DNA from: Nitrospira sp. CR1.2
GTDB taxonomy: Bacteria; Nitrospirota; Nitrospiria; Nitrospirales; Nitrospiraceae
Length of the DNA stretch: 64,000 nucleotides
Reading direction: 5' to 3'
Assembly (NCBI GenBank): GCA_014055495.1
Contig: WIAG01000012.1
Location: forward strand, 706-64,705
In this document: positions 1-24,670 of the stretch, one piece after another
Numbering within the stretch: the first letter of the stretch is position 1
Layout of the letters: the number at the start of each line of letters is the position of its first letter
Translations under genes and position numbers: made by a program
Notes under the pieces: generated by a model
Told to the model about the DNA's origin: nothing
The model's database searches: none
What the model saw: the letters and a program-made list of their open reading frames with translations, nothing else

Positions 1-772
1 GCGCCAACGCGGGATGGAGCCCCAGCCTATGATGACCAAGCTGCGCATCCGCCGCGCGCCCATCGTCTTCGGAATGCACCAGATACACTTTGAGGAAATC
101 CGGTCGACCGCTCACGATCACCGGCCACTTGGCCTCAACCTCGGCATCGGTATCGACCACGACGTAGGAGCGGTTTTCGAACCAGCCCCGTTCGATCGGC
201 CCGACGGCCGGCTCATACCGCCCGACCCGCAACACGTCTTCGTACAAGGCGACGGGATGCCCGCCGCGTCCGGTCAGCCCGGCATGCGCAAAGGTGACGT
301 CGATGCTCGTCGGCACGTTGACGGCGCGCCGGATCTGCAACGCGAAGTCCCGCACGTCGTTCGGATTCTTCACGTAGAACACGCCGTCCTGCAGATAGCG
401 CTGCGCGACTGCCTGCACATTCCACAACCCCTCGACGTTGTGGTTGTGCGCCTCTCCGAACGGCGGAACCATGTAGAGGCCGGAAAGATCCACGGTCTGA
501 ACCGGTCCAGGTGGCCGCTGTCTGGTCAGGCGTCCCTGAACCGAATACCAGGTATCGGGCTGAAACTGCTCCCCGTCGAACCATCGGCCGTTGACGAAGG
601 CATAGGGCTCCGCCGACGGCGCAGGCGCGATGCCTGCACTCCCGGCGCAACCGGTAGCCGTCAACGCAAGCAGCACCGGCGTGAGCAGACCGCGCAAGAC
701 CTTGCCGCAGCGCCGTGCGAACATCGCAATCCCGCTGCTGCCCAGTCCCGGCCCCGTTCGCCTGTTCGTCAT
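1..772 (-). CDS. amidohydrolase-family lipoprotein, N-terminal ~257 codons only (3' end lies beyond window start)
   Basis: Hand translation of the minus strand from ATG 772..770 stays open to nt 1. It is absent from the ORF track because there is no stop in the window. Sequence: MTNRRTGPGLGSSGIAMFARRCGKVLRGLLTPVLLALTATGCAGS (lipobox LTATGC) ... GLYMVPPFGEAHNHNVEG (H-x-H metal motif as in amidohydrolases) ... DFLKVYLVHSEDD. ATGA start/stop overlap with the upstream gene. Confidence 0.5.
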   Translation of the reverse strand, partial: MTNRRTGPGLGSSGIAMFARRCGKVLRGLLTPVLLALTATGCAGSAGIAPAPSAEPYAFVNGRWFDGEQFQPDTWYSVQGRLTRQRPPGPVQTVDLSGLYMVPPFGEAHNHNVEGLWNVQAVAQRYLQDGVFYVKNPNDVRDFALQIRRAVNVPTSIDVTFAHAGLTGRGGHPVALYEDVLRVGRYEPAVGPIERGWFENRSYVVVDTDAEVEAKWPVIVSGRPDFLKVYLVHSEDDGRAADAQLGHHRLGLHPALA

Positions 773-963
773 AGACTGAGATTCATTTCGTGCGTCTTGT
801 TCCTCTGGACCAGCCGATCCAGCGAGTCGCGAAACACCCGCAGGCTGCCTCGGCCGATCTTGGTGCCTTCCAACCGGCCGTCTTCCACCCACCGATAAAT
901 CGTCCACCGGCTCACCGCCAACACATCCGCCGCTTCCCCGACGCGCAAGAGTTGCTTGTTCAT
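769..963 (-). CDS. small helix-turn-helix DNA-binding protein (excisionase/MerR-like HTH family)
   Basis: MNKQLLRVGEAADVLAVSRWTIYRWVEDGRLEGTKIGRGSLRVF fits the excisionase-type HTH pattern. AAAGGAGA lies 5 nt upstream of ATG 963. The track ORF 769..1020 carries an unsupported N-extension. Confidence 0.7.
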   Translation of the reverse strand: MNKQLLRVGEAADVLAVSRWTIYRWVEDGRLEGTKIGRGSLRVFRDSLDRLVQRNKTHEMNLSL

Positions 964-1027
964 GGCAATCTCCTTTGAAGTACATACGCGGGCGGCACCG
1001 CCGTGCGATGCCGCCCGCATCCGATGG

Positions 1028-3361
1028 TTAGAACAGTCCCAACGTCACACCGGCATAAAACGACCGGCCGTAGCCGGCGAAGAACAAGGTTTTGTTCGCA
1101 TCCGCCGTACTGTCGGCCACCACGTTGCCGGAGGCTGCATATTTCTTGTCGGCGATGTTGTCGATCTCCGCAAAGAACTTCGCAAACCGGATCCACTTGT
1201 TGTTGTGAAACTCAAAGTTCTTATGGATATTCAGGTTGGCGATTACGAAGGACGGGATGCCCACCGTGTTGTTGTTGTTCAGGAAGTAACTGTTCATGTA
1301 GTTGACTTCGACCCAACCGCCCCACCCGCTGCCGGCATGGTCGTACGATTCCTTGAAGTTGAAGGTATCGGTCGGCACGTTTGGAACCACCTTCCCGTCC
1401 CGCACGAAGGCCGTCGGAATCCCACCGGCCAGGAACCGATCGCTGAAGTTGATGTAGCGCGCGTCGATGTGGGTATAGGCGCCGGAGAACCGTAACCCGT
1501 CCAAGGGCCGCCAGTCGTAGAAGAATTCAATGCCGCGATATTGCGACGAGTCGGCGTTGATCGCAGCCTGACCGCCGGTGTTGGAGACGACCTGGGTGAT
1601 GATCTCGTCTTTGACGAACGTGACAAACCCGACCAATTGCACGGTCAAGGTCTTGTGGAGGCGTGACTCCGTCCCGAGTTCGACGTTCAGGTTCTTCTGC
1701 GGTTTCAGATCGAAGTTGGTTCCCGCCAGACCCGTGAAGGGGTTGGTCAACAGATTGCCGAACCCCGGAATGGCATACCCCGTGGATGCGCGTACCCAAT
1801 GCCGATACCCATCGCCCGGCTTCCAGCTGACCGATACTTCCGGCGCCCAATTGCTGAAGCTGCGCTCGGCCCCGGCCCGACCGCTCACCGCCCCGGCGTT
1901 ATAGCTGATCGTCTGCACGCTCAACTGCGATTGTTCGAAACCTAGTCCAGCCGCCAGGGTCCACTTCGGAATGAATTCCAATTCCTCCCGGACCCGGCCG
2001 CCGATGTTGCGAATGGTGCCGCGGCTGTTCTGCGCCAACGTGCCGCGCGTCCCGAAGAAGTCCTGGAGGTTATTGAAGGTATTCCCTTCCTGCTCCATCT
2101 GATTCACGAAAAAGCCGACGTAGCTGCGCAAGGGCATGTCGAAGAGCCGCCCGTCGTGTCGCAGATCCGTGTAATGTTTGTAGTTCGGATTGATGTTGTC
2201 GCTGATCTGCGTGAAGGTCTGATTGATGTCCTTCACGTCGTAGTCGGCTTCCATGGTCAGGACGGTGTTGGCGTTGATCTGCCGCTCGTACATTCCGCCG
2301 ATGATATTGCGCCGATCCAACCGCCGTTGCCCCAACAGCACGGCATTCGTCGCGTTGCTGATGCCGCCGGCCTGCCGGTGATCGGTGTTGAACTGGTTGA
2401 TCGTCAACCTGGTCGGCACCCGCGAATCCAGCCAGTTCGTGATGGCCTTGAAGTACAAGTTCTGTTTGTCGTCCACCTTCACGCGAAAATTGAAATTCAT
2501 CGTTTGCGTACTGTAATCGCTGTGGCGAATGAAACCGTCCTCCGACACGTGGCTGCCGAACAGCGAGATATCCACATTGTCGAACTGCTGGCCGACGGCA
2601 AACGCATACTTCTGATACCCGTACGAACCGCCGGTGATGAAACTTTCCATCCCATTGATGTCGCTGCCGCGCCTGGTGCGGAAGTGCACCATCCCGCCGA
2701 GTGCGTAATTGTCATAGAGCGACGACGAGGCGCCGCGCGTGACTTCCACGCTCCGCATGAACCAGGGATCGTGGATATCCAGGCGGGATAATCCGTCCGA
2801 CTGCGTCTGGATAAATCCGTCCTCGTACATCTTGATTTCACGCACCGCAAAGGAGGTTTTCACGCCGGAGCCGCGGATCGAAATACTGAAATCGCGCGGG
2901 CCGTTGGCCTGTCGCAACACCACCCCGGGGAGGGACTCCATGGATTCACGAAGCGTCCTCGTCGGCTGCGATTCGGTTTCCGATTGTTCGGTCGCTGAGA
3001 GTGAGAGGCCCTCAGGTCGTCGCTGCACACGGGTGCTTACGATGCTCACATCGGACAGTTCGTACTGTGGGATTGGCTCTGCCGCGGCAGCCGCCTCCGA
3101 CGATTCTCCCACCGTCGCCGGCTGAACCGGCTGTACCGGGGTGACTGCCGCGCCGCCCGGCGGTTGCTGCTGGAGTTCCTCTAACTCCCGCAGAATGTTC
3201 TGCAGTTGATCTTTGAGGTCCCGTTCCCGCGCACTGTTGTCGACACCGGCTCCTGCGCCCGATTCCTGCGCCAAGGAAACGGCGGGAGCTAGACCGATGG
3301 CCGAACACAGCACACAACCTGCGAAGACATAATGCCTGAATGATTGAATAGTGGCCCACAT
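1028..3361 (-). CDS. TonB-dependent outer-membrane receptor
   Basis: Signal peptide MWATIQSFRHYVFAGCVLCSAIGLAPAVSLAQE, TonB-box-like LSDVSIVST, plug-like PGVVLRQANGPRDFSISIRGSG, a long barrel region and a terminal ...YAGVTLGLF. GGGAGG lies 6 nt before ATG 3361; the track start 3388 is a GTG extension. Confidence 0.9.
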   Translation of the reverse strand: MWATIQSFRHYVFAGCVLCSAIGLAPAVSLAQESGAGAGVDNSARERDLKDQLQNILRELEELQQQPPGGAAVTPVQPVQPATVGESSEAAAAAEPIPQYELSDVSIVSTRVQRRPEGLSLSATEQSETESQPTRTLRESMESLPGVVLRQANGPRDFSISIRGSGVKTSFAVREIKMYEDGFIQTQSDGLSRLDIHDPWFMRSVEVTRGASSSLYDNYALGGMVHFRTRRGSDINGMESFITGGSYGYQKYAFAVGQQFDNVDISLFGSHVSEDGFIRHSDYSTQTMNFNFRVKVDDKQNLYFKAITNWLDSRVPTRLTINQFNTDHRQAGGISNATNAVLLGQRRLDRRNIIGGMYERQINANTVLTMEADYDVKDINQTFTQISDNINPNYKHYTDLRHDGRLFDMPLRSYVGFFVNQMEQEGNTFNNLQDFFGTRGTLAQNSRGTIRNIGGRVREELEFIPKWTLAAGLGFEQSQLSVQTISYNAGAVSGRAGAERSFSNWAPEVSVSWKPGDGYRHWVRASTGYAIPGFGNLLTNPFTGLAGTNFDLKPQKNLNVELGTESRLHKTLTVQLVGFVTFVKDEIITQVVSNTGGQAAINADSSQYRGIEFFYDWRPLDGLRFSGAYTHIDARYINFSDRFLAGGIPTAFVRDGKVVPNVPTDTFNFKESYDHAGSGWGGWVEVNYMNSYFLNNNNTVGIPSFVIANLNIHKNFEFHNNKWIRFAKFFAEIDNIADKKYAASGNVVADSTADANKTLFFAGYGRSFYAGVTLGLF

Positions 3362-3470
3362 ACACATCCTCCCGGCACAACGGTGCACACGACAGAAGAG
3401 ACCATCCCCTCCCGCCCCTGTCTGAACGGACGAGAAGAGAAGCTAGCCGACCTAGCGATATGAAAGGGAA

Positions 3471-3794
3471 TTACGACTGAACAGAGGGTGGTGCGCGAGA
3501 GGCGACGGGAAAGCCGCCGCCGCCCGCGACGATGGAATGGCTGTCCTCGACAAGAGGCGTCGCCACGAGAACCGGCTGCAGAAGCAGAGCCACAGGGCCC
3601 GCATCGGATGTCGGATTGGCCTGACAGGCCCAGGCACAGAAACCGGAGTGCGACACTGTTCCACCGTGATGGTGGGCGGCCGGTTTCGGATCGGCATGGT
3701 CCACCACGCAGGCCACGGAAAACAGCGCCAGGACCAGGTATAGTCCTGCCAACGCAGCCGCGCATCGTGTAAACGCTGGTTTTCTCCGCATCAT
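3471..3794 (-). CDS. small exported/membrane-anchored His-rich CxWxC protein, paralog 1 of 3
   Basis: 107 aa. MMRRK plus a hydrophobic helix, then AAHHHGGTVSHSGFCAWACQ and C-terminal SRAPP. Its ATG overlaps the stop of the upstream tlpA-like gene (ATGA at 3791-3794). Paralogous to 6853..7164 and 9701..10006. Confidence 0.6.
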   Translation of the reverse strand: MMRRKPAFTRCAAALAGLYLVLALFSVACVVDHADPKPAAHHHGGTVSHSGFCAWACQANPTSDAGPVALLLQPVLVATPLVEDSHSIVAGGGGFPVASRAPPSVQS

Positions 3795-4330
3795 GGCATC
3801 AAACTTTGCACGGCACGAACCGCATCGGGCGCATCCCAGTCGCGCGGCCCGACGGCCCGCCCGATCAGGGTGCCTTGGGGATCGATAAAGACGGTCGTCG
3901 GGAGCGCCCGCACCAGATAGGCATGGGACACGTCGTGATCTTCGTCAAACAATACCGGCAACTGCACTTTCACATTCGCGAGAAACTGTGCGATCCCTTG
4001 CCGCTGTAAATCGGTCGTGATCGTCAGCAGGGCGAACCGATCGGGATCCAACTGCTGACGCAAGCGCCCGAGCGCCGGCATCTCTTCTTTGCAGGGTCCG
4101 CACCAGGTGGCCCAGAAATTGACCACGACGACCTTCCCCTTCAAGTCAGCCAGCTGCACTCGCGATCCATCCAAGGCGGTCAGCGCGAACGGCGCAGCCA
4201 CAGTGCCGGTCCCAACTCGTCCGATTTTGAGTACTGCCAGGGGATCCTCCGCCGACGCAGAGCCGACCAAGCCGGCCGCAAGCCAGAAGGCAAGGAACAG
4301 CACCAGCCTGCGCATCCTGTTTTCCCTCAT
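3791..4330 (-). CDS. TlpA/ResA-like periplasmic thiol:disulfide oxidoreductase (copy 1)
   Basis: Signal peptide MRRLVLFLAFWLAAGLVGSASA. Thioredoxin-fold active site VVNFWATWCGPC and a conserved cis-Pro region LPTTVFID. Confidence 0.85.
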   Translation of the reverse strand: MRENRMRRLVLFLAFWLAAGLVGSASAEDPLAVLKIGRVGTGTVAAPFALTALDGSRVQLADLKGKVVVVNFWATWCGPCKEEMPALGRLRQQLDPDRFALLTITTDLQRQGIAQFLANVKVQLPVLFDEDHDVSHAYLVRALPTTVFIDPQGTLIGRAVGPRDWDAPDAVRAVQSLMP

Positions 4331-4349
4331 CGTGACGACTCACACAGGC

Positions 4350-5654
4350 TTATTGCACCGCCTGGGCCGCCACGGGGGCGGGTGACAGCCGCAACGTCTG
4401 CGTCACAATTTTATGACCGGGCATGGCATGTTCCATCCAAGCCAGGGCAAAGATGCCCTGCCGATTCACCGCCACGACCGGCGTCTGACTTTTTCGCTCG
4501 TTCAATTTGTGCGGAGTCGTAAAATCGGCCCCCCGGTCGGTCGAGACACTCATCACCACATCGCGTTTCACCGGCCCCTGCTCCTCCCAGATCACGACCA
4601 GCCGTCCCTCGGGGTCGACGGCAATCTGCGGATGGTCGGGGAAGGTATTCCTGGAGACGTTCAATTGCCGCTTCGGCGAGAACGTGCGCCCCCGATCGTC
4701 CGAGTAGGCCATATAGACGGCGGGGATTTCATCGGTGCCTTCCGTGTACCACACGACGTACAACCGTCCCTGCCGGTCCACGCCCATGGAAGCGGGACGG
4801 TGGGGGCAGGCCGGAAACACCCACTTGTCATGACCGACAATCACGGGCGGCTCGAACGTCTCACCGTAGTCCGTTGAACGCGCCACGACGGTTTCCCGCA
4901 CATTGCCCTCGAAAATTTTTCGCCAGGCCACGTAGACCATGCCGTCGGGGCCACTCGTCACTGCCGTACGGCAGCAGACACAGGTCCCCTCGTCCACCTT
5001 GAGGTTCCTGGTGATGGTCACACCCCGATCCAACGACCGCGCGACATAGGTGCCCGGCTCTTTTTTACCTTCACGCCCATCGATCCAGGAGAGGTGCAGG
5101 CGGCCATCCGCGTCACGATGGAGCGCATCGAAGGTATGTTGGATGACACCAGGATCGTCGTTGACCACGATCGAGGGCTGGAAAGTCCGCCCTCTGTCCG
5201 TGGAACGGCTGAGGCGCAACTCGGTCGCAAACGGTTGTTGCGGGGTGGCTTTCGGATGGGCCAATCCCCAGGTGACGAACACGTCGTCCCCCTGCACGAC
5301 CAGGGCTGGGGCTTCTTGTCGCCAATAGGGCACGTCTTCGGGACGATTGATGCGCACCGGCGCGCCCATCGGCCCGCCCGGTTCCGTGCTGCGGGCGTAC
5401 AGAACAGACCGGACCTCCTTATCTTCTTCCATCCAGGCCAGCGACAAGGCCCCGGCATCATCGATCTGTACCGACGGTCCCACCAAACTTTTTACTTTGT
5501 GCTCGGTGATCACCTTGGGACCAAGCTCCCCGGGCAGCGCCGTTTCCGCGAAGGCCGGCTGTATCATCGGCAACAACCCCAGCACGAGTCCGGCGCACAA
5601 GGCCCGTCGACCTGGTCTCGACATCGGCACCATCCGTCGCCTGCTCTGGATCAT
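4350..5654 (-). CDS. secreted BNR/Asp-box repeat beta-propeller protein (sialidase-like fold)
   Basis: Signal peptide followed by five S-x-D-x-G-x-T-F-type Asp boxes (SRSTDRGRTF, SLDRGVT, STDYGETF, SDDRGRTF, STDRGADF). Also CVCC and ACPH motifs. The start could be M11 (5624). Confidence 0.75.
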   Translation of the reverse strand: MIQSRRRMVPMSRPGRRALCAGLVLGLLPMIQPAFAETALPGELGPKVITEHKVKSLVGPSVQIDDAGALSLAWMEEDKEVRSVLYARSTEPGGPMGAPVRINRPEDVPYWRQEAPALVVQGDDVFVTWGLAHPKATPQQPFATELRLSRSTDRGRTFQPSIVVNDDPGVIQHTFDALHRDADGRLHLSWIDGREGKKEPGTYVARSLDRGVTITRNLKVDEGTCVCCRTAVTSGPDGMVYVAWRKIFEGNVRETVVARSTDYGETFEPPVIVGHDKWVFPACPHRPASMGVDRQGRLYVVWYTEGTDEIPAVYMAYSDDRGRTFSPKRQLNVSRNTFPDHPQIAVDPEGRLVVIWEEQGPVKRDVVMSVSTDRGADFTTPHKLNERKSQTPVVAVNRQGIFALAWMEHAMPGHKIVTQTLRLSPAPVAAQAVQ

Positions 5655-5704
5655 GACTTCCCCCGTTGGAACATAAGCAGGAACCGCGCAACCAGCCGGG
5701 CCCC

Positions 5705-6742
5705 TCAGGCCCCCGGTGTGAACAATTGAAAATACTTGGTCACGCCGAACGTGTAACTGGTCGCCTGCGCAAGATTGTTATTGGCGTCCCGATAGAGGGG
5801 CACCTGGGCATAAAAGTACGCCTGCCACGTATCTCCGATATTGAACAGCACCCCGGGCGCGGCGCCGAACCAGGACGAACCGGTATTGGGAATCCCATGG
5901 TCCAGGATCGGTCCTGAACCGATGCTCCCGCTCAAACTATCATGCGTCATGTACCGATAATTCACCTGTGCCGTGAACACCAGCCACGGCAACGTCACCA
6001 GATTGAACCCGCCGTTGACAATGTATTCGTCGCCGAATTGATAGCCATCGTTGTTCTTGAAGGTATGCCGATAGCTGGCGAATACGAATTGATTCAAGCG
6101 GTGAGGGAGAATTTCATAGGACTGATACATCGTGCCCACCAAGCCGAATTGACCACGTCCCAGTTGACCGGCCGGTTCCAACACTCCGCCCAGGTTGTCC
6201 GTCTGCCGGTAATCACCGGTCGGCAGCTCCGTGCCGACCCCGAAGACCAGCATGTTCTTCAGCGAGGCCAGGACATTGTATTTCGCCATGACCCGGATAT
6301 CGCCGATCCCCTTGTCGGAAAAGCGGCTGAGGTCCTCGTTCTGTCCTTGGTGGAAATGATAATGCTCATGCCGGCGCGTCATGTAGGGCAAGGTCACCTG
6401 CAATCCGAACCGATCCGTTACGCCGTAGTTGAAATCGAGAGCAAAAGAATTCGTATACGTCGAACGCTCATTGTGGTGATTGGGGATGATGCGCCGCCCG
6501 ATCTGGTCGGCCTCGGCGATGAGGCCGGTCGACCCGCTGGGCAAATTCATGGGCGTATAACTATAGATAAAGTTCATGGTCAGCAGACCGGCTTGCGGCA
6601 CCTGCTGCTGAGACCCGATCGTCACAAAACAACTGACGGCACCGCAGGCAGCCTCGGCCGTAGGCAGAAGCGCCACAGTCCCGGCAGCCACCGTCACGAT
6701 TCCAAGCACAGACACCCACAGTCTTCTACTGAGAGCCCACAT
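5705..6742 (-). CDS. outer-membrane beta-barrel protein (MetA-pathway/transporter-like OMP family) with His-rich loop
   Basis: Signal peptide MWALSRRLWVSVLGIVTVAAGTVALLPTAEA. Alternating barrel-like sequence with GIGDIRV...GTELPTGDY typical of this OMP family, and a RRHEHYHFHQ loop. The track start 6751 is TTG; ATG 6742 follows GAAAGGA. Confidence 0.6.
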   Translation of the reverse strand: MWALSRRLWVSVLGIVTVAAGTVALLPTAEAACGAVSCFVTIGSQQQVPQAGLLTMNFIYSYTPMNLPSGSTGLIAEADQIGRRIIPNHHNERSTYTNSFALDFNYGVTDRFGLQVTLPYMTRRHEHYHFHQGQNEDLSRFSDKGIGDIRVMAKYNVLASLKNMLVFGVGTELPTGDYRQTDNLGGVLEPAGQLGRGQFGLVGTMYQSYEILPHRLNQFVFASYRHTFKNNDGYQFGDEYIVNGGFNLVTLPWLVFTAQVNYRYMTHDSLSGSIGSGPILDHGIPNTGSSWFGAAPGVLFNIGDTWQAYFYAQVPLYRDANNNLAQATSYTFGVTKYFQLFTPGA

Positions 6743-6852
6743 CACGCACAATCCTTTCTCCCATCACAGTTGACGGGACGGGTCGCGCCCGAAGAAACCT
6801 CCGGCGGAGACACCACAGTTGATGAATGACCACGATGAGCGAGGGAACCGAG

Positions 6853-7164
6853 TCAGGACCGGGAGGAGTCGGGAGGGCCCCGTGATGTCCACAGGGCACG
6901 GGATTCGACCGACAAGGAATCGAACAGGATGTCATCGATCTGGGTCACGACGGGAATCGTCACGGGGACCGACTCAGGCACCGGCTCGAGATCTTGACCG
7001 GCCGCACACATCCAAGAACAGACCACGGTCCCGTGCACACCGGCGTCGTGGTGCGCATGTTGCGACAGGTGCTCCAGCATGTACGGATACACAACCCCTT
7101 GAAGTGCCAGATAGGCGCAGGACAGCAGGAGCGGCATCACGGTATGTCGTACACGGATCATCAT
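6853..7164 (-). CDS. small exported/membrane-anchored His-rich CxWxC protein, paralog 2 of 3
   Basis: 103 aa. MMIRVRH plus a hydrophobic helix, then QHAHHDAGVHGTVVCSWMCA and C-terminal SRGPP. It starts 4 nt after the stop of tlpA-like copy 2. Confidence 0.6.
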   Translation of the reverse strand: MMIRVRHTVMPLLLSCAYLALQGVVYPYMLEHLSQHAHHDAGVHGTVVCSWMCAAGQDLEPVPESVPVTIPVVTQIDDILFDSLSVESRALWTSRGPPDSSRS

Positions 7165-7168
7165 ACGA

Positions 7169-7711
7169 TTAGTGCAAAGAAGCCGCCTTCACGGGCGCGG
7201 CTTGCTGAATCCGACGGACGATCTCCTGGATTTTGTGCTCCGTCAGCAACCCGCCTTTGATGTACTCCTGCACCACCCCCTGCTGGTCGATAAACACACT
7301 GACCGGCAGGCCGAACACCCCATATTGGTTCGCCACCTGATTTTCGCGATCCAACAGCACCGGGAAGGTGTGTTGGTACTGTTGAATGTGCTCGCGCACC
7401 TTGGCCTCCTCTTCCAACTCATTCACGGCCAGCACCACAAAGTCCTTATCGCGCAGCCGGTCGTAGACCGCCTGCATCGCGGGCATTTCTGAGGTGCAGG
7501 GCTTGCACCAGGTCGCCCAAAAATTCACCAGGACGATTTTCCCACGATAGTGCTCCAGGCTGTGCGCCTGGCCCTGGAGATCCTTCAGCGAAAACTCCGT
7601 GGCTGGCATTCCGGCAGCGGGAGGCCGGGAGCCCATCGCCAGGGCCGAGCCAACCAACGTCGACAGGAACAGGGTCGCCACCATCAGGTTCCGCGTCAGA
7701 CCTGCTGTCAT
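7169..7711 (-). CDS. TlpA/ResA-like periplasmic thiol:disulfide oxidoreductase (copy 2)
   Basis: Active site LVNFWATWCKPC and cis-Pro region LPVSVFID. Signal peptide MTAGLTRNLMVATLFLSTLVGSALA. GGAGA lies 9 nt upstream of ATG 7711; the track start 7756 is an extension. Confidence 0.85.
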   Translation of the reverse strand: MTAGLTRNLMVATLFLSTLVGSALAMGSRPPAAGMPATEFSLKDLQGQAHSLEHYRGKIVLVNFWATWCKPCTSEMPAMQAVYDRLRDKDFVVLAVNELEEEAKVREHIQQYQHTFPVLLDRENQVANQYGVFGLPVSVFIDQQGVVQEYIKGGLLTEHKIQEIVRRIQQAAPVKAASLH

Positions 7712-7772
7712 CTTCGTCGATCTCCTACAGACTCGTGACGGCGGCTCGCTTACCAAGTGCTCCTCGCTCGCC

Positions 7773-8972
7773 TTACCGGTTCAGGCTGTAGCTGACCGGC
7801 AGATGCAGGACAACCATCGGGGCCGTCAACTCATGTTTCATATGCAGAGGACAGGCCCGCCGGACCGCTTCCATCGCCGCTTGATCCAAGGACTCATGTC
7901 CGGAACTCTTCACGACCTCCACGTCCTTCAGTTGGCCGTCGTTGCGGATGGAGACCTTGAGCACCACCTTGCCTTCCCAACCGTTCAGGCGCGCCGTGCT
8001 GGGGTAATGTCTCAACTCGATGATGCGGCGATGCAGCGACTCGGCTAACCATCCGTAATCGGCCTTCGCAGTCGGTCTGGCGACGGCGGCCTGAGCCACC
8101 ACCTGATGTTCCCGCAAAGTGGCCGGATCCGGCTCGGACACCGCCGCCATCGGCGCAGGCGGCTCCACCACGGCCTCGACCGGCGCCTGAGGCGCAGAAA
8201 CGGGCTCACTCACGGCAGCAACCACCGGTTCGGCCGCAGGCGCGGAGGGTGCCGGGGTCGGGGGGTGCTCCACCGCTGCGACAGCCGGAGCGCTATGCAC
8301 CACTGGTGCGCTGGCCGTCACCACTGGTTCCTGAACCGTTTCCACCACCGCCGGCGCATTGACGACCGACTGGGCTTGATAGGTCTGGGCCGTGACAGGA
8401 GCCGCTTCCGTCACCTGCTGTTCAACCACTGGAGCCACCTCCCGCTGCACTTCGGCAGGGGCGGAGGCCTGCACCACCGGCTCCGTCTGGTGAATGTGTT
8501 GCGGTTCGACGGGCTTCGCTTGCATCTGGACGATTTCCTGCTTCGGGTGGATCTGCTCCTGCGGGCGAACCGTTTCGACGACCGGCTGCGGTTCCCGCTG
8601 CACCGCCTGCACCACCCGCTCGACAGGCTGTACGACACGCTGAACCGGCTGCGGCTCGACCCTGGTCTCCACCTGGCGCTGGACCGGCTCAGGCGGGGGT
8701 TGGACGGTGCGCACCGGCTCGGGGCGCGGATTCACCGGGGTCGGGGCAGGGGGCTGGACAGCCGTGGCCGGCTGCTCTTGACGAACGACTTCACGCGGCG
8801 GCTCGACCAGGGCGACATCCCACTTGAAGGGTTCCTTTTCCACCATCACGGACATCTTCGGCAACAACCCGAAGGCCACGAGTGCCAGGCAGGCGTGCAA
8901 CACCAGCGAGGCCCCCCAGCCGGTCACCGCCTGCCTCGAATCCCCCGATTGCGCCACGAACACGTTCTCCAT
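7773..8972 (-). CDS. tonB: energy transducer TonB
   Basis: N-terminal anchor GWGASLVLHACLALVAFGLL, a very long P/V/Q/E-rich linker, and the C-terminal TonB domain YPSTARLNGWEGKVVLKVSIRNDGQLKDVEVVKSSGHESLDQAAMEAVRR. Confidence 0.85.
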   Translation of the reverse strand: MENVFVAQSGDSRQAVTGWGASLVLHACLALVAFGLLPKMSVMVEKEPFKWDVALVEPPREVVRQEQPATAVQPPAPTPVNPRPEPVRTVQPPPEPVQRQVETRVEPQPVQRVVQPVERVVQAVQREPQPVVETVRPQEQIHPKQEIVQMQAKPVEPQHIHQTEPVVQASAPAEVQREVAPVVEQQVTEAAPVTAQTYQAQSVVNAPAVVETVQEPVVTASAPVVHSAPAVAAVEHPPTPAPSAPAAEPVVAAVSEPVSAPQAPVEAVVEPPAPMAAVSEPDPATLREHQVVAQAAVARPTAKADYGWLAESLHRRIIELRHYPSTARLNGWEGKVVLKVSIRNDGQLKDVEVVKSSGHESLDQAAMEAVRRACPLHMKHELTAPMVVLHLPVSYSLNR

Positions 8973-9007
8973 GAGGATGGCCCCTTTCGACGCGATGCGC
9001 CCCGCCG

Positions 9008-9469
9008 CTACTTGAACACCACTTTCGAGACCGACCCGATCGGGACTTCAACCTGACCGAAATCGGATTCACCCTTGAAGCTGCCGCTCACCGCCGGGAT
9101 AAAATCTCCGTTCTTGCCGTTGGTCAGGGTCACGGTCATGGCCGGAGCACTCTTGTCGGCGCCGGGCTTGACCTCGATCTGCTTGATCTGGTCGAACTTG
9201 ATATTGACCGTCGCCGTGCCACGCTTCGCCGGCAGATGCCGTAACTCATGCGGGACAAAGGAGGTCTCGCTCATTTTCTCTTCCCAATAAAAAATGCCGT
9301 TCTTCAGCTCGGTCTCGACGCCCTGCTGATCGGTCACCGCCATCGTGAACGTCTTCTCAGCCTTCGCGTCGGCCGAAAAGGCAACCGGCGCCGAGGCCAA
9401 GACCGCCGCCCCCGCGAGCGCGCACACGGCCATCCGCACCATCCACTGATTGATCTGGTTCTTCATCAT
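9008..9469 (-). CDS. secreted hypothetical protein (beta-rich, ~153 aa)
   Basis: MMKNQINQWMVRMAVCALAGAAVLASAPVAFSA signal peptide. GAAGGA RBS upstream of ATG 9469; the track ORF start 9619 is an extension. Confidence 0.55.
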   Translation of the reverse strand: MMKNQINQWMVRMAVCALAGAAVLASAPVAFSADAKAEKTFTMAVTDQQGVETELKNGIFYWEEKMSETSFVPHELRHLPAKRGTATVNIKFDQIKQIEVKPGADKSAPAMTVTLTNGKNGDFIPAVSGSFKGESDFGQVEVPIGSVSKVVFK

Positions 9470-9700
9470 TCCTTCACTCCCTCGAACAAGACATGCCACG
9501 ACATCATCGCGATACCTACACAGATACTGCCCCCCAGTGCCGCGAACAGGAAGACCCCTGCCCGGCACATCTCGCCTCCGGATTGACGACGGTATGAAGA
9601 AGCACTGCACCCACAGCATGCGAGACTCCTCGCCTGACTGCTCACTCAGACTCGGCGACGATCAGCCGCGGAGCCGGAATCGGGACAACGGGAACGAAGA

Positions 9701-10006
9701 TCAGACCAAGAAGGGTGGTGCGCGAGACTCACTCAGGGAGTGAGACTGGGGGGAAAACAAACGATCGGAGTCACATCCGACCTCACCGGACAAGGAAAAC
9801 AGATGAGTCGCGTGCAGGGGGGTCACAACATGAACCCCGGCGGTCGCACACATCCAGGCGCAGATCCCTGATCCATGCATGGCGGCATCGTGGTGAGCCG
9901 CATGCTGGAGTTCATGTGCGACGGCGCTGCCGGTGGTCACCGCCAATAAGGCGATCACGGCGAGGGCGACAATCCAGACAATACCTTTGAAGTGGGAACT
10001 TCGCAT
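9701..10006 (-). CDS. small exported/membrane-anchored His-rich CxWxC protein, paralog 3 of 3
   Basis: 102 aa from ATG 10006. MRSSHFKGIVWIVALAVIALLAV, then QHAAHHDAAMHGSGICAWMCA and C-terminal SRAPP. The track start 10153 would overlap the TPR gene. Confidence 0.6.
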   Translation of the reverse strand: MRSSHFKGIVWIVALAVIALLAVTTGSAVAHELQHAAHHDAAMHGSGICAWMCATAGVHVVTPLHATHLFSLSGEVGCDSDRLFSPQSHSLSESRAPPFLV

Positions 10007-10032
10007 ATAACAAAGACCGTAATCTGGCGGGC

Positions 10033-10062
10033 ATGCTAACAAACTCGCCGCGGGAGCGTCAA
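10033..10062 (-). promoter_or_regulatory. candidate sigma70-type promoter for the uptake operon
   Basis: Minus strand reads TTGACG (10062..10057), an 18-nt spacer, then TAGCAT (10038..10033). It sits ~27 nt upstream of ATG 10006. Confidence 0.3.
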
Positions 10063-10103
10063 CGCCACTTTTTCCCTCCGAAGGGCCATTCGGCCGGGGC
10101 CAA

Positions 10104-11198
10104 CTATGGTCCCCCCACACCGATGATGCGTTCCACCCGCTCATCGCGCCCACCGAGATCTCGATAGCGCCGGTACTGGGCCAACGCGCGCCCCATGTCC
10201 TTGCGGTGGAGTTCGTAAAACACCCCCAGACTATAATGGGCCTCGGCGGAATTCGGCTTCAGCGCCACGGCCCGTTCATATTCCCGCTCGGCTTCTTCCA
10301 CACGATTGAGGCTGGTGTAGACCATTCCGAGGTTCAGGTGGGCTTCGGCATATTCGGGACGATACCGGATGACCTCCAGCAACTCCCGCTCGGCCTCCGC
10401 GAGCAGCCCTTGGCTTTTATAGACGAAGGCCAGGTTGTAATGGGCGTCGACCAAATCGGCCTTGACCGCGATCGCTTCCCTCAGCGCGGCTGCCGCGGCA
10501 TTCAAATCGTTTCCCCGCTCCGCCAGGCGCCCGAGCAGATACCAGGCGTCGGCATGCCTGGGATTCGCCTGCGTCAGACGGGCCAATTGCTCGCGAGCCA
10601 GAGTGAGATCGCCTTGGCTCTCGTACAGGCTTGCCAAATGGTACAAGGCCTCGGCGTGGTCCGGCCGCACGCGGAGGAGCGCCTGGTACATCTTTACGGC
10701 GTTGGGGCGATCGCGGCGTTCCTCATAGAGTCGCGCCAGGTCCAGGTGGGCTTCTTCGTTCCCCGGTGCAATATCCAACACTTGGCGCAACACCTGTTCT
10801 GCCTCGTCGCCTCGCCCTTGCGCGAGATACACGTCTGCCAGATCGTTCAAAATCTCGGCGTAAGGAGAGACATATTTCAACGCCTGTTTGTAGGCCTGAA
10901 TGGCTTCGTCGGGGCTCCGTTTGCTCTGAAAATAGACCAGCCCCAGGACATGGTGGGCCTCAGCCAGTCGGGGGTTCTGCGCCAGGGCTTTTTTCAGCGC
11001 CTCGATGGCGCCGTCCGCATTGCCCTCGCGAAACAGGGCCACGCCCCGCTCGTAACTGCGGCGGGCTGCGTCCGGCGAGGGAGAGGATGCCGACCATGCC
11101 TCAGGGAAGTCGGGCACAAGCGCAAGCAGGCAACCGAGCAAGAGGCTCGAGAGGAAATGACGCGAACAGTTGAGCCCTTGCCGCATCACGATCCGCAA
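10104..11198 (-). CDS. secreted tetratricopeptide (TPR) repeat protein
   Basis: Signal peptide, then about 8 consecutive 34-aa TPR-like units (e.g. AEAHHVLGLVYFQSKRSPDEAIQAYKQALKYVSP, AEALYHLASLYESQGDLTLAREQLARLTQANP). Confidence 0.8.
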   Translation of the reverse strand: MRIVMRQGLNCSRHFLSSLLLGCLLALVPDFPEAWSASSPSPDAARRSYERGVALFREGNADGAIEALKKALAQNPRLAEAHHVLGLVYFQSKRSPDEAIQAYKQALKYVSPYAEILNDLADVYLAQGRGDEAEQVLRQVLDIAPGNEEAHLDLARLYEERRDRPNAVKMYQALLRVRPDHAEALYHLASLYESQGDLTLAREQLARLTQANPRHADAWYLLGRLAERGNDLNAAAAALREAIAVKADLVDAHYNLAFVYKSQGLLAEAERELLEVIRYRPEYAEAHLNLGMVYTSLNRVEEAEREYERAVALKPNSAEAHYSLGVFYELHRKDMGRALAQYRRYRDLGGRDERVERIIGVGGP

Positions 11199-11448
11199 TG
11201 GAATCCGTGGGTGACTTCGGCGAGAGAGTCGACGAAGTGATGCGCCTCACTATAGAGAGCAGCGCAGGCGAAAGCAACGACGACACGGCGCGGCATGTCT
11301 CCATGGTGTGTGAGGATAAGGGTTGAGACCCTGGGCGCTGTTTCGGTAGGATTCCCTGTTCGATTCCTGTATACTCCGCCGCCGAGCCCATGCGGCAAGA
11401 GGAGAGCTTCGTCCGTAAGCCGGCTCGCGAGAACAAAGGTACGCCTGC

Positions 11449-14154
<2,706 letters not shown>

Positions 14155-14655: not shown

Positions 14656-15918
14656 GTGAAACAGGCGTCTACTACCGACAAGGGTGGTGTCACTTTGAGC
14701 ACTGGGCATCCTCAACTCCTGGCGACGATCAAAGCGGAAATCGCGGCACACGGTCCGATTCCGTTCGCTCGTTTCATGGAGTTAGCCCTCTATCATCCGC
14801 AATACGGTTACTACGTCCGACCCGTCGATGATCCAACTCAGGAACGCATCGGTTGGTCGGGTGATTTTTATACGAGTTCCGATGTGCATCCGATTCTGGG
14901 GCAGGCCCTGGCCAAACAGGCCCAGCAACTCGATGCCTGCCTGGGCCATCCGGCTCCATTTACCGTGGTGGAGATGGGTGCGGGCAAGGGACTGCTCGCG
15001 CGCGACTTTCTCGCCGCCTGCAAGAACGCTCCCGCCCATTTCGGTGAACGCCTTCGGTACATCCTCATCGAGCGCAGCGCCTCAATGCGGGCACTCCAGC
15101 AGCAGGCCTTAACGCCGTGGGTCGACCAGACAGGTCGCGTCACGTGGCTGGATCGGCTGGAAGATCTTCCGCCGGAGAGTGTCACCGGCCTCTTCTTCTC
15201 CAACGAACTGGTCGACGCGTTTCCGGTGCATCGCCTCACGGTGGTCGACGGGCGACCGCACGAACTGTACGTGGATCTGTGCGACGATCGCTTCACGGAA
15301 GTCTGCCGCCCACCCTCGGACGACCTCGCGGCCTATTTGCGGGAAGGCGCCATCAGCCTGCCTGACGGCTATCGAACAGAGATTAATCTCGACGCAATCC
15401 GGTGGATGACACAGGTCGCGCAGGTCATGGACCGCGGGGCGGTTCTGACGATCGACTATGGCCACACCGCCGAAGACCTCTATGGACCAGACCGCAAAAA
15501 CGGCACGTTCCTGTGCTATTACAGCCAGATGACCTCGGAAGACGCCTACGACCGGGTCGGCGAGCAGGACATGACGGCGCATGTGGACTTCACCGCCCTT
15601 GCGCGGGCAGGACAGCAGGCCGGGCTGGACGTGACCGGATTCACGAATCAAATGAGTTTCCTGATCGGCCTGGGCGCCGAGCAGCTCCTGGAATCGCTCG
15701 AGCCGGAGTCGCCGGAGTTTTACGCGGCCATTCACCTGCTGCGGCCGGACGGGATGGGCCGAACTTTCAAGGTTTTGGTGCAACACAAGGGGATGGCCAA
15801 ACCGGAGTTCGATGGGCTGAAATTCAAACCCTTCTTCGGATCGATTTTGCAAACGGACACGCGGTCACACGACGTTTCACGAACGACGCTTCACGATTCA
15901 CAGGTCTGTCATGGGTAG
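14656..15918 (+). CDS. class I SAM-dependent methyltransferase, MidA/NDUFAF7 (DUF185) family
   Basis: IAAHGPIPFARFMELALYHPQYGYY...DFYTSSDVHPILGQALA...VVEMGAGKGLLA is the family signature as I know it. GTG start. The 3' end overlaps nuoA by 8 nt and runs through a repeat element. Confidence 0.8.
   Translation: MKQASTTDKGGVTLSTGHPQLLATIKAEIAAHGPIPFARFMELALYHPQYGYYVRPVDDPTQERIGWSGDFYTSSDVHPILGQALAKQAQQLDACLGHPAPFTVVEMGAGKGLLARDFLAACKNAPAHFGERLRYILIERSASMRALQQQALTPWVDQTGRVTWLDRLEDLPPESVTGLFFSNELVDAFPVHRLTVVDGRPHELYVDLCDDRFTEVCRPPSDDLAAYLREGAISLPDGYRTEINLDAIRWMTQVAQVMDRGAVLTIDYGHTAEDLYGPDRKNGTFLCYYSQMTSEDAYDRVGEQDMTAHVDFTALARAGQQAGLDVTGFTNQMSFLIGLGAEQLLESLEPESPEFYAAIHLLRPDGMGRTFKVLVQHKGMAKPEFDGLKFKPFFGSILQTDTRSHDVSRTTLHDSQVCHG
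15868..15905. repeat. intergenic repeat family 1 (CTTCACG / AACGACG modules), half copy abutting nuoA start
   Basis: CACGACGTTTCACGAACGACGCTTCACGATTCACAGG. The 17-mer ACGCTTCACGATTCACA recurs exactly at 32617-32633. Confidence 0.6.
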
Positions 15919-16282
15919 CGAAGCGGCGCCGCTGAATTACATCCCGATCCTGATTTTTATCGTGATCGCGTTTGCCTTCGGCGCGGTACAGATTCTGCTG
16001 GGACGAATCGTCAGGCCCAGCCGCCCCTATCGCGCCAAACTGGCGCCGTATGAAAGCGGCAGCCCCCTGTTTTCGGACGCCAAGGTGCAGTTCCCGATCC
16101 GGTACTACATCATCGCGATGTTGTTCGTGATCTTCGATATCGAAATCGTCTTCATGTTCCCCTGGGCGGTCGCCTTCAAAAAGCTGGGCCTGGTGGGATT
16201 GGCGGAGATGGTGCTGTTCATCGCCATCTTGGTGGTCGGATTCTGGTACGCGTGGAAAAAGGGGGCGCTCGAATGGGACTGA
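15911..16282 (+). CDS. nuoA: NADH-quinone oxidoreductase subunit A
   Basis: 123 aa, 3 TM. YESGSPLF...RYYIIAMLFVIFDIEIVFMFPWA is typical NuoA/ND3. Confidence 0.95.
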   Translation: MGSEAAPLNYIPILIFIVIAFAFGAVQILLGRIVRPSRPYRAKLAPYESGSPLFSDAKVQFPIRYYIIAMLFVIFDIEIVFMFPWAVAFKKLGLVGLAEMVLFIAILVVGFWYAWKKGALEWD

Positions 16283-16320
16283 GTTTGGGAGCTAGGGTGA
16301 GCAGCCTGGTCACCTCTGTC

Positions 16321-16377
16321 GCTCGCGGAATGCGCGGTCTCAGAAGGCCCTCGTTCGACACGCGCAATCAGAGGCGG
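16321..16377. repeat. intercistronic hairpin repeat family 2, copy A (nuoA-nuoB gap)
   Basis: GCTCGCGGAATGCGCGGTCTCAGAAGGCCCTCGTTCGACACGCGCAATCAGAGGCGG. Near-identical core to 18774-18824, closed by GCGCG...CGCGC arms. Confidence 0.6.
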
Positions 16378-16429
16378 CCAGACCACTCGTTCTCCTTCTC
16401 GCAAGAGAACAAGGGAAAGTGAGAGGACT

Positions 16430-16909
16430 ATGAGTTTTCTGGAAAGACAACTCGATGCCAATGTGTTGACGACGAATCTCGATGCCTTCGTCGGCTGGGC
16501 GCGCAAATCGTCCCTCTGGCCGATGACCTTCGGACTGGCCTGTTGCGCCATCGAAATGATCGCCAGCGTTTCGTCGCGGTATGACATCGATCGTTTCGGC
16601 GCCGGTGTGTTCCGCGCCTCGCCCCGCCAGTCCGATTTGATGATCGTGGCCGGCACCGTCTCGCGCAAAATGGCACCCGTCATCCGCCGCATTTACGACC
16701 AGATGGCCGAGCCGCGCTACGTCATCTCAATGGGCTCCTGCGCCACGTCCGGCAATCACTACAACAGTTACGCCGTCGTGCAGGGAGTCGATCAGATCGT
16801 CCCGGTAGACGTCTATATCGCCGGCTGCCCGCCCCGTCCTGAAGCGCTGTTGGACGGGCTGTTGAAACTGCAGGAAAAGATTCAGCGCGAAAAGATTTTT
16901 GTACGGTAA
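16430..16909 (+). CDS. nuoB: NADH-quinone oxidoreductase subunit B
   Basis: [23 protein letters not shown] and IAGCPPRPE (N2 cluster ligands). Confidence 0.97.
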
Positions 16910-16997
16910 CCCGGACGTGAATTGGTGACCTCGCGGCGTTGAAGATTCCCGTCTTCCACCTGCCTCACCGGATCACACCTATCGGTATTTCGGCACG

Positions 16998-18749: not shown

Positions 18750-18773
18750 GTCGATGAGCCGTGTACGTCCTAT

Positions 18774-18824
18774 GCTCGCGCAACGCGCGGTCTCAGAAGA
18801 CCCTCGTTGGACGCGCGCAGGCGG
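18774..18824. repeat. intercistronic hairpin repeat family 2, copy B (nuoCD-nuoE gap)
   Basis: GCTCGCGCAACGCGCGGTCTCAGAAGACCCTCGTTGGACGCGCGCAGGCGG. Aligns with copy A over ~45 nt with few mismatches. Confidence 0.6.
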
Positions 18825-18872
18825 AAGCGCCCGGCTCACACCTCACCGGAGGTGAAACGTGGAGTGCGAGAG

Positions 18873-19403
18873 ATGCTGAAGGAAAAATATCAGGCGGAAA
18901 TCGACGAGATCCTCTCCCGGTATCCGGTGAAACGGTCGGCACTGCTGCCTCTGCTGTACATGGCGCAGCGCGAAGAGGGGTATGTCACGGAAGCCGCCAT
19001 GCAGGAGATCGCCGGCATCTTGAAGCTGACCCCACCGCAGGTGTATGAGACGGCCACGTTTTATACGATGCTGAACCTGAAGCCGGTGGGAAAGTTCCAC
19101 CTGCAGGTCTGCAAATCGTTGATGTGCGCCCTCGTGGGGTCGGACACCGTCATCGGCTGGATCGGCGCGAAGCTCGGGATCAAGCCAGGCGAAACGACGA
19201 CGGACAAGCTCTTCACACTCAGCATCGTGGAATGTCTGGCCGCGTGCGGAACCGGTCCCATGATGCAGGTCAATGACGACTACTATGAGCGCCTGACGGA
19301 AGAGAAACTGGATCGCATTCTGGCGGACCTTCGACAGACCGGCACATCGTCGCTGAAGACCGGTCCGTTCATGTGGCCGGAGCCGGCAAAACCTGGAGCG
19401 TGA
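18873..19403 (+). CDS. nuoE: NADH-quinone oxidoreductase subunit E
   Basis: MLKEKYQAEIDEILSRYPVKRSALLPLLYMAQ..., and 2Fe-2S ligands CKSLMC...CLAACGTGP. GGAG lies upstream of ATG 18873; the track start 18807 reads through the repeat. Confidence 0.93.
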   Translation: MLKEKYQAEIDEILSRYPVKRSALLPLLYMAQREEGYVTEAAMQEIAGILKLTPPQVYETATFYTMLNLKPVGKFHLQVCKSLMCALVGSDTVIGWIGAKLGIKPGETTTDKLFTLSIVECLAACGTGPMMQVNDDYYERLTEEKLDRILADLRQTGTSSLKTGPFMWPEPAKPGA

Positions 19404-19487: not shown

Positions 19488-19495
19488 TAAAGACT

Positions 19496-20803: not shown

Positions 20804-20807
20804 TGTA

Positions 20808-20893: not shown

Positions 20894-20899
20894 TAGAGT

Positions 20900-23569: not shown

Positions 23570-23593
23570 GACGAGACGAGGAGTATTGTTGTC

Positions 23594-24661: not shown

Positions 24662-24670
24662 GGGAGTGCC

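Follow-up and report, generated by a model that had tools for sequence, protein, structure and literature searches.

What does the tight co-directional gene cluster at the start of a 64,000-nucleotide (nt) stretch of Nitrospira sp. CR1.2 do (assembly GCA_014055495.1, contig WIAG01000012.1, positions 706 to 64,705 of the forward strand; this whole stretch is called the window below), and why does it contain three small paralogous open reading frames (ORFs), designated P3, P2 and P1, each followed by a long non-coding gap? The cluster occupies the minus strand between a tetratricopeptide repeat (TPR) protein gene and the start of the window, and runs from P3 (10006) through a helix-turn-helix (HTH) gene (769) to an amidohydrolase gene. 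The answer proposed here, held with slightly better than even confidence and drawn by analogy, is that P3, P2 and P1 are cis-acting leader ORFs of the same kind as CruR of Bordetella pertussis and CutF of Rhodobacter capsulatus, and that they gate a conserved Nitrospirales TonB-energised outer-membrane uptake operon at three points. It is proposed that P3 gates the gene of a small secreted protein (and with it the TonB module), P2 the gene of a barrel outer membrane protein (OMP) and P1 the gene of a TonB-dependent receptor (TBDR); by the same analogy, the metal sensed would most likely be copper.

The evidence begins with the anatomy of the three ORFs:

9701-10006, minus strand: P3, 101 amino acids (aa), first gene downstream of a promoter candidate

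6853-7164, minus strand: P2, 103 aa, internal

3471-3794, minus strand: P1, 107 aa, internal

All three have an N-terminal export signal, a segment with five or six His residues, a CxWxC motif, a hypervariable spacer of 41-42 residues and the motif R-[A/G]-P-P located 3-5 residues before the stop codon. P3 contains a signal peptide (…SAVA/HE) and the sensor segment HELQHAAHHDAAMHGSGI-CAWMC, with CAWMC encoded at 9862-9848, a 41-residue spacer, RAPP at 9724-9713 and a 3-residue tail; P2 has CSWMC at 7020-7006, a 41-residue spacer, RGPP at 6882-6871 and a 5-residue tail; and P1 has CAWAC at 3638-3624, a 42-residue spacer, RAPP at 3497-3486 and a 4-residue tail. The peptide HELQHAAHHDAAMHGSGICAWMC exemplifies the sensor segment of the family.

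An alignment of 119 members indicates that invariance is confined to two or three His residues (H33, H42) and to C53, W55, C57, R100, P102 and P103; the spacer contains no invariant residue, yet its length is fixed, both in the alignment and in the searches. Among 120 close homologues, R[A/G]PP is present in 117, and CxWxC is combined with [S/P/A]R[A/G]PP in 116, where the spacer comprises 41 (78 sequences) or 42 (38 sequences) residues and the tail 3-5. An exhaustive hidden Markov model (HMM) search of 1.84 billion representative proteins (E <= 0.001) returned 367 clusters at 50% identity; among the 148 newly listed best matches, 131 retained CxWxC and 136 contained R[A/G]PP (73 RAPP, 63 RGPP), with a spacer of 41 or 42 residues in 134 of these 136. 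The tail is mostly 1-8 residues long across the whole family, and the sequences without the R[A/G]PP motif are mostly truncated or chimeric gene calls. In all 241 full-length members, a hydrophobic 15-residue segment (Kyte-Doolittle mean of at least 1.6) lies upstream of the Cys motif, which follows within 21-27 residues with 4-8 His residues in between. A P3 homologue lacking RAPP (protein P0119, locus L004, 9863-10357), whose ORF extends about 65 nt into the conserved intergenic region, looks like the product of a frameshift or assembly error, not a real variant.

RAPP and RGPP are the strongest translation arrest cores and the most strongly avoided tetrapeptides in bacterial proteomes (PMC12992588), and enrichment of both has been reported near the C-terminus of small secreted proteins whose genes precede those of TonB receptors, copper chaperones and thioredoxins (PMC12992588, PMC10951233). 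The combination of a fixed-length, unconserved spacer with such a strongly avoided arrest tetrapeptide is the signature of a regulatory arrest peptide, not of a folded metalloprotein. DUF2946 (PF11162), the family of CruR and CutF, is the commonest Pfam family found in the P family (46/119 members at E <= 1, best E-value 2.3e-4), and the alignment of P1 with the profile spans from the Cys region to the profile end. Judging from these sequence relationships, the P family probably works like CruR and CutF and is a probable distant relative, not a demonstrated member, of PF11162. An assignment of P1-P3 as precursors of ribosomally synthesised and post-translationally modified peptides was considered and rejected, as modifying enzymes are absent and arrest better explains the ruler and RAPP.

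The second part of the evidence is found at the RNA level, in the gaps that follow the P genes:

9470-9700, minus strand: P3-secreted protein intergenic region, 231 nt, with conserved hairpins including GCGAG-N4-CUCGC

6743-6852, minus strand: P2-barrel intergenic region, 110 nt, into which the C-rich 3' end of P2 runs

3362-3470, minus strand: P1-receptor intergenic region, 109 nt, with three hairpins

3456-3442, minus strand: hairpin 1 (GCUAG-N5-CUAGC), followed by UUCUCUUCUC, a U/C tract; a weak terminator-like site

3440-3405, minus strand: hairpin 2, central, 12 bp, with compensatory changes

3394-3368, minus strand: hairpin 3, small and invariant, pairing part of the GGGAGGA Shine-Dalgarno sequence of the receptor gene

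These are the three largest gaps in the operon (231, 110 and 109 nt, after P3, P2 and P1, respectively); among the other eight junctions, seven range from -4 to 50 nt, and the one between the TBDR and HTH genes, at 7-64 nt, varies with the HTH start chosen. The 3' ends of P1, P2 and P3 hold three of the four strongest C-over-G 60-nt segments of the 9.2-kb operon. A C>G bubble extends from -120 to +40 around the stop codons of 77 non-redundant P genes, whereas in 199 other gene ends of the same loci G exceeds C; in the last 40 nt of the P genes the fraction of C is 0.41-0.44 and that of G is 0.17-0.24.

The P1-receptor region is about 80% identical among 17 loci, compared with 79% for the TlpA1 coding sequence, 72% for the P1 spacer and 58% for the 5' end of the receptor gene; the stem of hairpin 1 is conserved and its loop is variable in these loci, and the predicted structure of the region outscores shuffled and slid controls. 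The first ~110 nt after P3 are conserved whether the next gene encodes the secreted protein or a second BNR protein, and the covariation analysis of the P3 region found one compensatory pair only (term ~0), the sequences being too similar. As far as these alignments can tell, the intergenic regions after the P genes are under selection, and the P1-receptor hairpins could be pause or termination sites for RNA polymerase. Positions 1-12000 gave no match to a known RNA family in an Rfam scan at E <= 1, so the long gaps are not explained by a riboswitch; intrinsic-terminator-like sites are not enriched (10 found, 8.7 expected) and those in the P1 and P2 intergenic regions are only weak, which leaves intrinsic termination unsupported as the main device. 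A separate observation concerns the P3 region, where an element at 9615-9640 (minus strand) has the form GCGAG-N4-CUCGC-AUGCUGUGG(G/A)UGCA (L006-L016, L037, alignments A6/A7), with the stem kept and the loop varying; the AUG within this element is not conserved as the start codon of the gene that follows.

The rest of the cluster has the following composition:

10062-10033, minus strand: sigma-70-like promoter candidate TTGACG-18-TAGCAT with TG, upstream of P3

9008-9469, minus strand: small secreted beta-rich protein, 153 aa, whose start at 9469 provides a signal peptide and an AAGGA Shine-Dalgarno sequence that is also conserved in other loci

7773-8972, minus strand: TonB, dedicated, with a TonB_C domain and a Pro/Glu/Val-rich linker

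7169-7756, minus strand: TlpA2, TlpA/ResA-like periplasmic thiol:disulfide oxidoreductase, WCKPC

5705-6751 (probable start 6742), minus strand: barrel OMP

4350-5654, minus strand: BNR propeller, exported, sialidase-fold

3791-4330, minus strand: TlpA1, TlpA/ResA-like periplasmic thiol:disulfide oxidoreductase, WCGPC

1028-3388 (probable start 3361), minus strand: TonB-dependent receptor, plug and barrel

769-1020 (probable start 963), minus strand: small HTH_17/excisionase-type DNA-binding protein

1-772, minus strand: 5' part of a lipoprotein amidohydrolase gene, which continues beyond the window

10104-11198, minus strand: TPR protein gene, co-directional, upstream of P3

The promoter candidate is the sole intergenic minus-strand promoter-like match in the region, and none was found upstream of P2 or P1. 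The TlpA2 gene stops 4 nt ahead of the P2 start, the stop of TlpA1 overlaps the P1 start (ATGA), and the amidohydrolase start at 772 overlaps the HTH stop in the same way, as ATGA, so this gene is a member of the cluster. The first-pass annotation of the window, made by a model from the letters and a list of ORFs, had described an eleven-gene TonB-dependent operon. Its eleven co-directional genes and their domain content were found again, all on the minus strand, as were the promoter at 10033-10062 and the amidohydrolase gene, which it had called a probable member; of the gap range it gave, -4 to about 110 nt, the lower end agrees with the present data and the upper end does not, the largest gap being 231 nt when the secreted protein starts at 9469. 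Its reading of TBDR plus TonB as an active uptake system is borne out by the conservation of a TonB-dependent outer-membrane cluster, and the neighbourhood search that it suggested located this cluster in 32 Nitrospira/Nitrospirales loci.

These loci were collected by looking up two P homologues and by scanning one genome for each species, which gave 32 genome loci plus metagenome contigs. All of the genome loci belong to Nitrospira, Nitrospiraceae or Nitrospirales, including N. defluvii and N. moscoviensis, and all named relatives of the P genes, the propeller and the barrel are from Nitrospira or Nitrospirales, the closest being from Nitrospira sp. CR2.1. The genome scan pattern was built on the CxWxC core and the exhaustive search was carried out without taxonomy, so the restriction to Nitrospirales is provisional. 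P1 lies directly upstream of the receptor gene in every locus that covers this junction, and TlpA1 almost always overlaps the P1 start. The TlpA2-P2-barrel genes form one unit, which is present, absent or relocated between loci; the P3-type gene is located between the TPR gene and the gene of the secreted protein, of a second propeller paralogue (N. defluvii) or of TonB (N. moscoviensis type). Some loci contain up to five P genes, where the extra copies precede an HTH gene or the gene of a 512-557-aa lipoprotein. From the sequences compared, the conserved arrangement is not due to chance, and the gene-by-gene comparison of loci indicates that the P genes behave as heads of shuffled modules in all 32 genome loci.

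Several partners seen in these loci may be mentioned in their own right. Lipoproteins of 512-557 aa headed by their own P-type ORF are encoded in L026 (11425-13095) and L030 (5547-7082) and have no Pfam match; HTH_17 genes are P-headed in L014, L031 and L036; and a second propeller paralogue, 36-42% identical to the BNR protein of the window, stands directly after the P3-type gene in L012 (2849-4126, N. defluvii), L014, L016, L037 and L028. The TPR gene (L031 7207-8292, L034 6570-7649, L035 12715-13776) keeps its synteny with the cluster in every contig long enough to include it, and in deeper-branching Nitrospirales it is located inside the cluster between two TonB-like genes or directly after the receptor gene. 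The TPR protein probably belongs to the system, perhaps as an accessory of the TonB complex.

How might such ORFs gate the operon? Two characterised DUF2946 proteins provide models. CruR (Bp2923), the copper-responsive upstream regulator of bfrG in B. pertussis, is a small exported ORF with a CXXC motif; in the absence of copper, ribosome arrest at RAPP keeps the operon expressed, and copper lifts this arrest, upon which transcription is terminated by Rho (PMC9426467). CutF of R. capsulatus, a periplasmic copper sensor with a CxxxC motif and a Pro-rich end, controls the translation of cutO; there, copper prolongs the stall and the stem-loop hiding the next ribosome-binding site melts (bioRxiv 2022.11.11.516240; 2025.02.05.636593).

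In the mechanism proposed for the window, the peptide targeting and the sensor and ruler are read from the sequence, while the covering by the ribosome, the release by metal and the role of TlpA are interpretation. The P peptide would be targeted by its N-terminal signal, exposing the sensor segment with its five or six His residues and CxWxC; 41-42 residues on, the ribosome would meet R-A/G-P-P, and peptide-bond formation would be blocked with the Cys pair just outside the exit tunnel. The stalled ribosome would cover the C-rich, G-poor 3' end of the P gene, so that transcription would continue into the gene of the secreted protein, the barrel OMP or the receptor. Binding of metal to the Cys/His sensor would release the arrest, the ribosome would leave, and Rho or the conserved intergenic hairpins would stop expression, so that the uptake genes would be on when the metal is scarce. 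The TlpA reductases, translationally coupled to P1 and P2, would keep the cysteines of the sensor, propeller and barrel reduced, and three sensors in series would make the expression of the receptor dependent on three successive checkpoints.

On balance, this CruR-type design, in which Rho termination is relieved, fits best and suits an importer, the direction of the response being inferred; it is favoured over the CutF type because the C>G bubble is the Rho-utilisation signature described for cruR (PMC9426467) and because the next ribosome-binding sites are not hidden. A broader proposal, put forward tentatively and at clearly less than even confidence, is that a Nitrospirales-specific, His-rich CxWxC branch of arrest peptides has been wired as a relay of 3-5 checkpoints, two of them TlpA-fed, which controls an unrecognised TonB-dependent route for the acquisition of copper or a copper ligand.

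The gated and partner proteins bear on what this route might carry. The receptor contains a TonB box, a plug, a 22-strand barrel and an N-terminal extension of ~100 aa. Its sole solved relatives are structures of the pyrroloquinoline quinone (PQQ) importer PqqU/YncD (PDB 6v81, 9c4o; E = 2e-37), and the score against the PqqU NCBIfam model is 194.7 bits, short of the equivalog cut-off of 1200. The N-terminal extension (3060-3361, minus strand) consists of a charged coiled segment, RERDLKDQLQNILRELEELQQQ, and a Pro/Ala/Val-rich linker ahead of the TonB box; it has no Pfam match and, with 58% nucleotide identity, is less conserved than any other part of the gene. The barrel OMP of the window has no Pfam match either, and its homologues at ~52% identity carry PF13557; the predicted model has 12 strands (pLDDT 84), with target-normalised TM-scores of up to ~0.77 (0.72-0.76 for the top FapF chains and 0.74 for 4rl8). 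The invariant residues of the barrel family are an N-terminal C-G-x-V-x-C and the loop residues H90, H125 and H127, the loop of the window protein being HEHYHFH.

In 41 homologues of the propeller, CVCC (C225-C228), ACPH (C283-H285) and several His residues are invariant, and the CVCC and CPH motifs together with the His residues suggest a metal or redox site. The propeller model (pLDDT 85) resembles generic sialidase and lectin propellers in the fold search, at 14-17% identity, and a sequence search of the PDB gave no match. TlpA1 and TlpA2 match AhpC-TSA and Redoxin above the Pfam thresholds and have WCxPC sites and signal peptides, and they stay below the equivalog cut-offs (106.8 of 230 for TlpA, 140 of 170 for ResA). 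The secreted 153-aa protein has no Pfam, NCBIfam or PDB sequence match. The system would deliver to the periplasm a cargo that may be the copper ion, a copper complex or another small molecule; an organic ligand would be compatible with the coupled amidohydrolase and the PqqU-like receptor.

The first-pass annotation had gone further on this point and named a redox-sensitive metal as the cargo. The Cys and His features behind that claim are conserved, and a thiophilic, redox-sensitive metal, most likely copper, is the best guess for the signal; the cargo itself may or may not be a metal. The annotation had also named assignment of the receptor to a non-metal class as grounds for refutation, and this applies in part, the receptor being neither OprC/NosA- nor ZnuD-type and its nearest relatives being PqqU/YncD. 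P1-P3, counted by the annotation among the cargo-handling His/Cys proteins, have the features of CruR/CutF-type arrest-peptide leader ORFs and are better described as regulators.

A number of observations weigh against copper-gated leader ORFs as the answer. The support is sequence-based, and translation arrest, metal binding and Rho dependence are all deduced from it. The match of P1 to PF11162 (13 bits) is below the gathering threshold of 23.7. Only P3 is first in the operon and P2 and P1 are not, unlike the known cruR genes, and polar Rho termination at P3 would seem to make P2 and P1 superfluous. The C-richness at the ends of the P genes is partly forced by the codons for Ser-Arg-Ala-Pro-Pro. 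Neither an inner-membrane transporter nor any recognised copper protein (CopC, PCuAC, Sco, YcnI, PepSY_TM) is encoded in the cluster. The mature receptor has no Cys and no Cys/Met metal site, and the OprC/NosA copper-receptor model (TIGR01778) is absent from its 19 NCBIfam matches, the best of which is PqqU. The receptor therefore gives no evidence for direct uptake of a free metal ion, and its substrate could just as well be a small organic ligand or a metallophore. Finally, relatives of DUF2946 are also found ahead of Zn/Cd/Co efflux genes (czc/czr operons), so the family does not fix the metal.

The least improbable of the alternatives is still judged improbable: the arrest peptides would act as proposed, with a signal or cargo other than copper, namely Zn, Ni, Co, or an organic molecule or metallophore processed by the periplasmic amidohydrolase. 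It would accommodate the PqqU-like receptor, the czc/czr relatives and the lipoprotein amidohydrolase gene translationally coupled at the operon end, and a His-rich sensor would suit Zn or Ni; however, both characterised relatives, CruR and CutF, sense copper, TonB-dependent transporters (TBDT) and AhpC_TSA/thioredoxin proteins are typical partners in copper-linked DUF2946 operons, and TlpA reductases are known to keep copper-site cysteines reduced. In Bradyrhizobium, TlpA maintains the copper-site cysteines of ScoI and CoxB in this state.

A CutF-like logic, in which the metal prolongs the stall and unmasks the next ribosome-binding site, would turn the operon into one induced by metal excess and serving handling or detoxification. 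The CxxxC spacing is that of CutF, all members have a Sec signal, the invariant small hairpin pairs part of GGGAGGA before the receptor gene and, in the window, a hairpin overlaps the site before the barrel gene. Over 53 intergenic regions, however, opening the Shine-Dalgarno sequence costs 3.5 kcal/mol, compared with 4.1 kcal/mol in shuffles (lower in 39/53, Wilcoxon p = 7e-4), so a shielding stem-loop is not a general feature; single-sequence folding of the three regions of the window gave energies not unusual relative to shuffles (z -1.3, -0.3, -0.55). The gated genes, moreover, include a receptor and TonB, the parts of an importer, and not oxidases or efflux pumps; this logic is judged improbable here.

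Quite improbable, too, is the idea that P1-P3 monitor the thiol-redox capacity of the periplasm as substrates of the adjacent TlpA, with the formation or reduction of the CxWxC disulfide giving the releasing pull. A TlpA gene does directly precede both P1 and P2 in almost every locus, the genes overlapping or lying 4 nt apart, and upstream ORFs with RAPP/RGPP and a conserved Cys pair have been reported beside thioredoxin and DsbA genes in other bacteria (PMC12992588). Yet P3-type copies have no TlpA gene upstream, a pure disulfide sensor leaves the 4-8 conserved His residues by the Cys pair unexplained, and the genes gated encode a receptor, a barrel and a secreted protein, not reductases. Finally, that P1-P3 are stable membrane-anchored or periplasmic metallochaperones, which pass cargo between the receptor, barrel and propeller and carry the C-terminal motif incidentally, is very improbable: their His/Cys-rich mature N-termini and export signals would fit, but half of each protein is the unconserved, fixed-length spacer, conservation returns no earlier than R-[A/G]-P-P, which nearly every member has 1-8 residues ahead of its stop codon, this motif is avoided in bacteria since it arrests translation (PMC12992588), and the long conserved non-coding regions after the P genes are left unexplained.

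The surroundings of the cluster have some features of their own. Its divergent neighbour is secA (11449-14154, plus strand), as is also the case in many Nitrospirales loci with a long enough contig (L001-L036). A SecM-like monitoring of secA by the P genes was rejected, since secA is divergent and no P gene lies upstream of it; the persistence of Sec-dependent arrest peptides beside secA is curious. Beyond secA (14656-31305, plus strand) lie a Methyltransf_28 gene and the complex I (nuo) operon, which encodes a fused 30-kDa/49-kDa subunit (16998-18749) and an 889-aa NuoG-like subunit with molybdopterin-oxidoreductase domains. Further on, the stretches 47433-55191 and 56061-60221 (both plus strand) encode two very large hybrid histidine kinases of 1625 and 1007 aa, with multiple PAS and receiver domains, and, after them, a 1386-aa protein with patatin-like and GNAT domains.

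To return to the leader ORFs, the kind of regulator is known already (CruR in 2022, CutF in 2021-2025 and the RAPP survey in 2025). A 2026 catalogue of Nitrospira copper systems contains only CopA, Cus, CueO and Pco/Cop proteins and does not list the operon (PMC13374858). In the literature searched, no description was found of the Nitrospirales CxWxC subfamily, which is unrecognised by Pfam, of its 3-5 copies per locus, of the internal TlpA-coupled copies or of the set of genes controlled; the first-pass annotation, which did not recognise the gene combination as a described system, was right in this respect.

Copper supply limits nitrification in drinking-water filters and shapes the competition among nitrifiers. 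A conserved, metal-gated uptake operon that N. defluvii and N. moscoviensis have in common with many environmental Nitrospira would fill a gap among the known acquisition routes and would serve as a transcript marker of metal limitation. Sensors of the CruR/CutF type would be extended to a new phylum and to a subfamily missed by Pfam, with 367 natural clusters possessing an exact 41-42-residue ruler. If the proposal is true, these would be the first metal-responsive nascent-chain sensors internal to an operon, in the group that includes the main nitrite-oxidising and comammox bacteria, and the serial checkpoints would give a steep, multiplicative response. The unusual design, with serial internal sensors coupled to thiol reductases, can be used to test the ligand-driven release of a RAPP stall from outside the tunnel.

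A comparison with known systems separates what is shared from what is particular to the window. The receptor differs from PqqU/YncD in the extra ~100-residue N-terminal extension and in an operon context unrelated to PQQ. The predicted 12-stranded barrel of the OMP resembles the COG4313 channel (PDB 4rl8) and FapF (5o65), which are PF13557 outer-membrane barrels, whereas the CGxVxC motif and the His-rich loop are specific to the family of the window protein. With ApdA, ApdP and SecM the P family shares the core motif, its position by the C-terminus of a small secreted protein and the upstream ORF (PMC7897499, PMC10951233, PMC12992588); those peptides monitor Sec/YidC by means of the translocation pulling force, whereas in the P family the fixed distance of the His/Cys sensor points to release by a ligand. 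The resemblance to CutF includes the CxxxC spacing of the Cys residues, the Sec signal, the cis control of the next gene and a distance of ~45 residues to a Pro-rich C-terminal stalling motif; CutF, however, switches on a detoxifying oxidase, whereas the P genes precede importer parts, and the ribosome-binding sites after the P genes are not preferentially hidden.

The closest counterpart is CruR, whose CXXC and RAPP motifs are a conserved 45 residues apart, with RAPP three residues short of the C-terminus; its C>G bubble begins in the unstructured part and reaches into the 162 nt that separate it from the gene of a TonB-dependent transporter (PMC9426467). Its homologues have been reported in Proteobacteria and in a few Planctomycetes, Firmicutes and Deinococcus; the cruR genes are reported as first in the operon, and TBDT and AhpC_TSA/thioredoxin partners are typical of the copper-linked DUF2946 operons (PMC9426467). 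The P family has the same plan of a small exported ORF with a Cys pair, a fixed spacing (41-42 residues, compared with 45 in CruR) to RAPP near the stop, a C>G bubble entering a long gap (109-231 nt, compared with 162 nt), a TonB-dependent transporter as the next gene and AhpC_TSA/thioredoxin proteins as frequent partners. It differs from CruR in being below the Pfam threshold and in lacking a PepSY_TM partner; its motif is CxWxC preceded by 5-6 His residues instead of CXXC, it is found in the phylum Nitrospirota, and it occurs as 3-5 copies per locus, two of which, in the window, are internal and coupled to TlpA.

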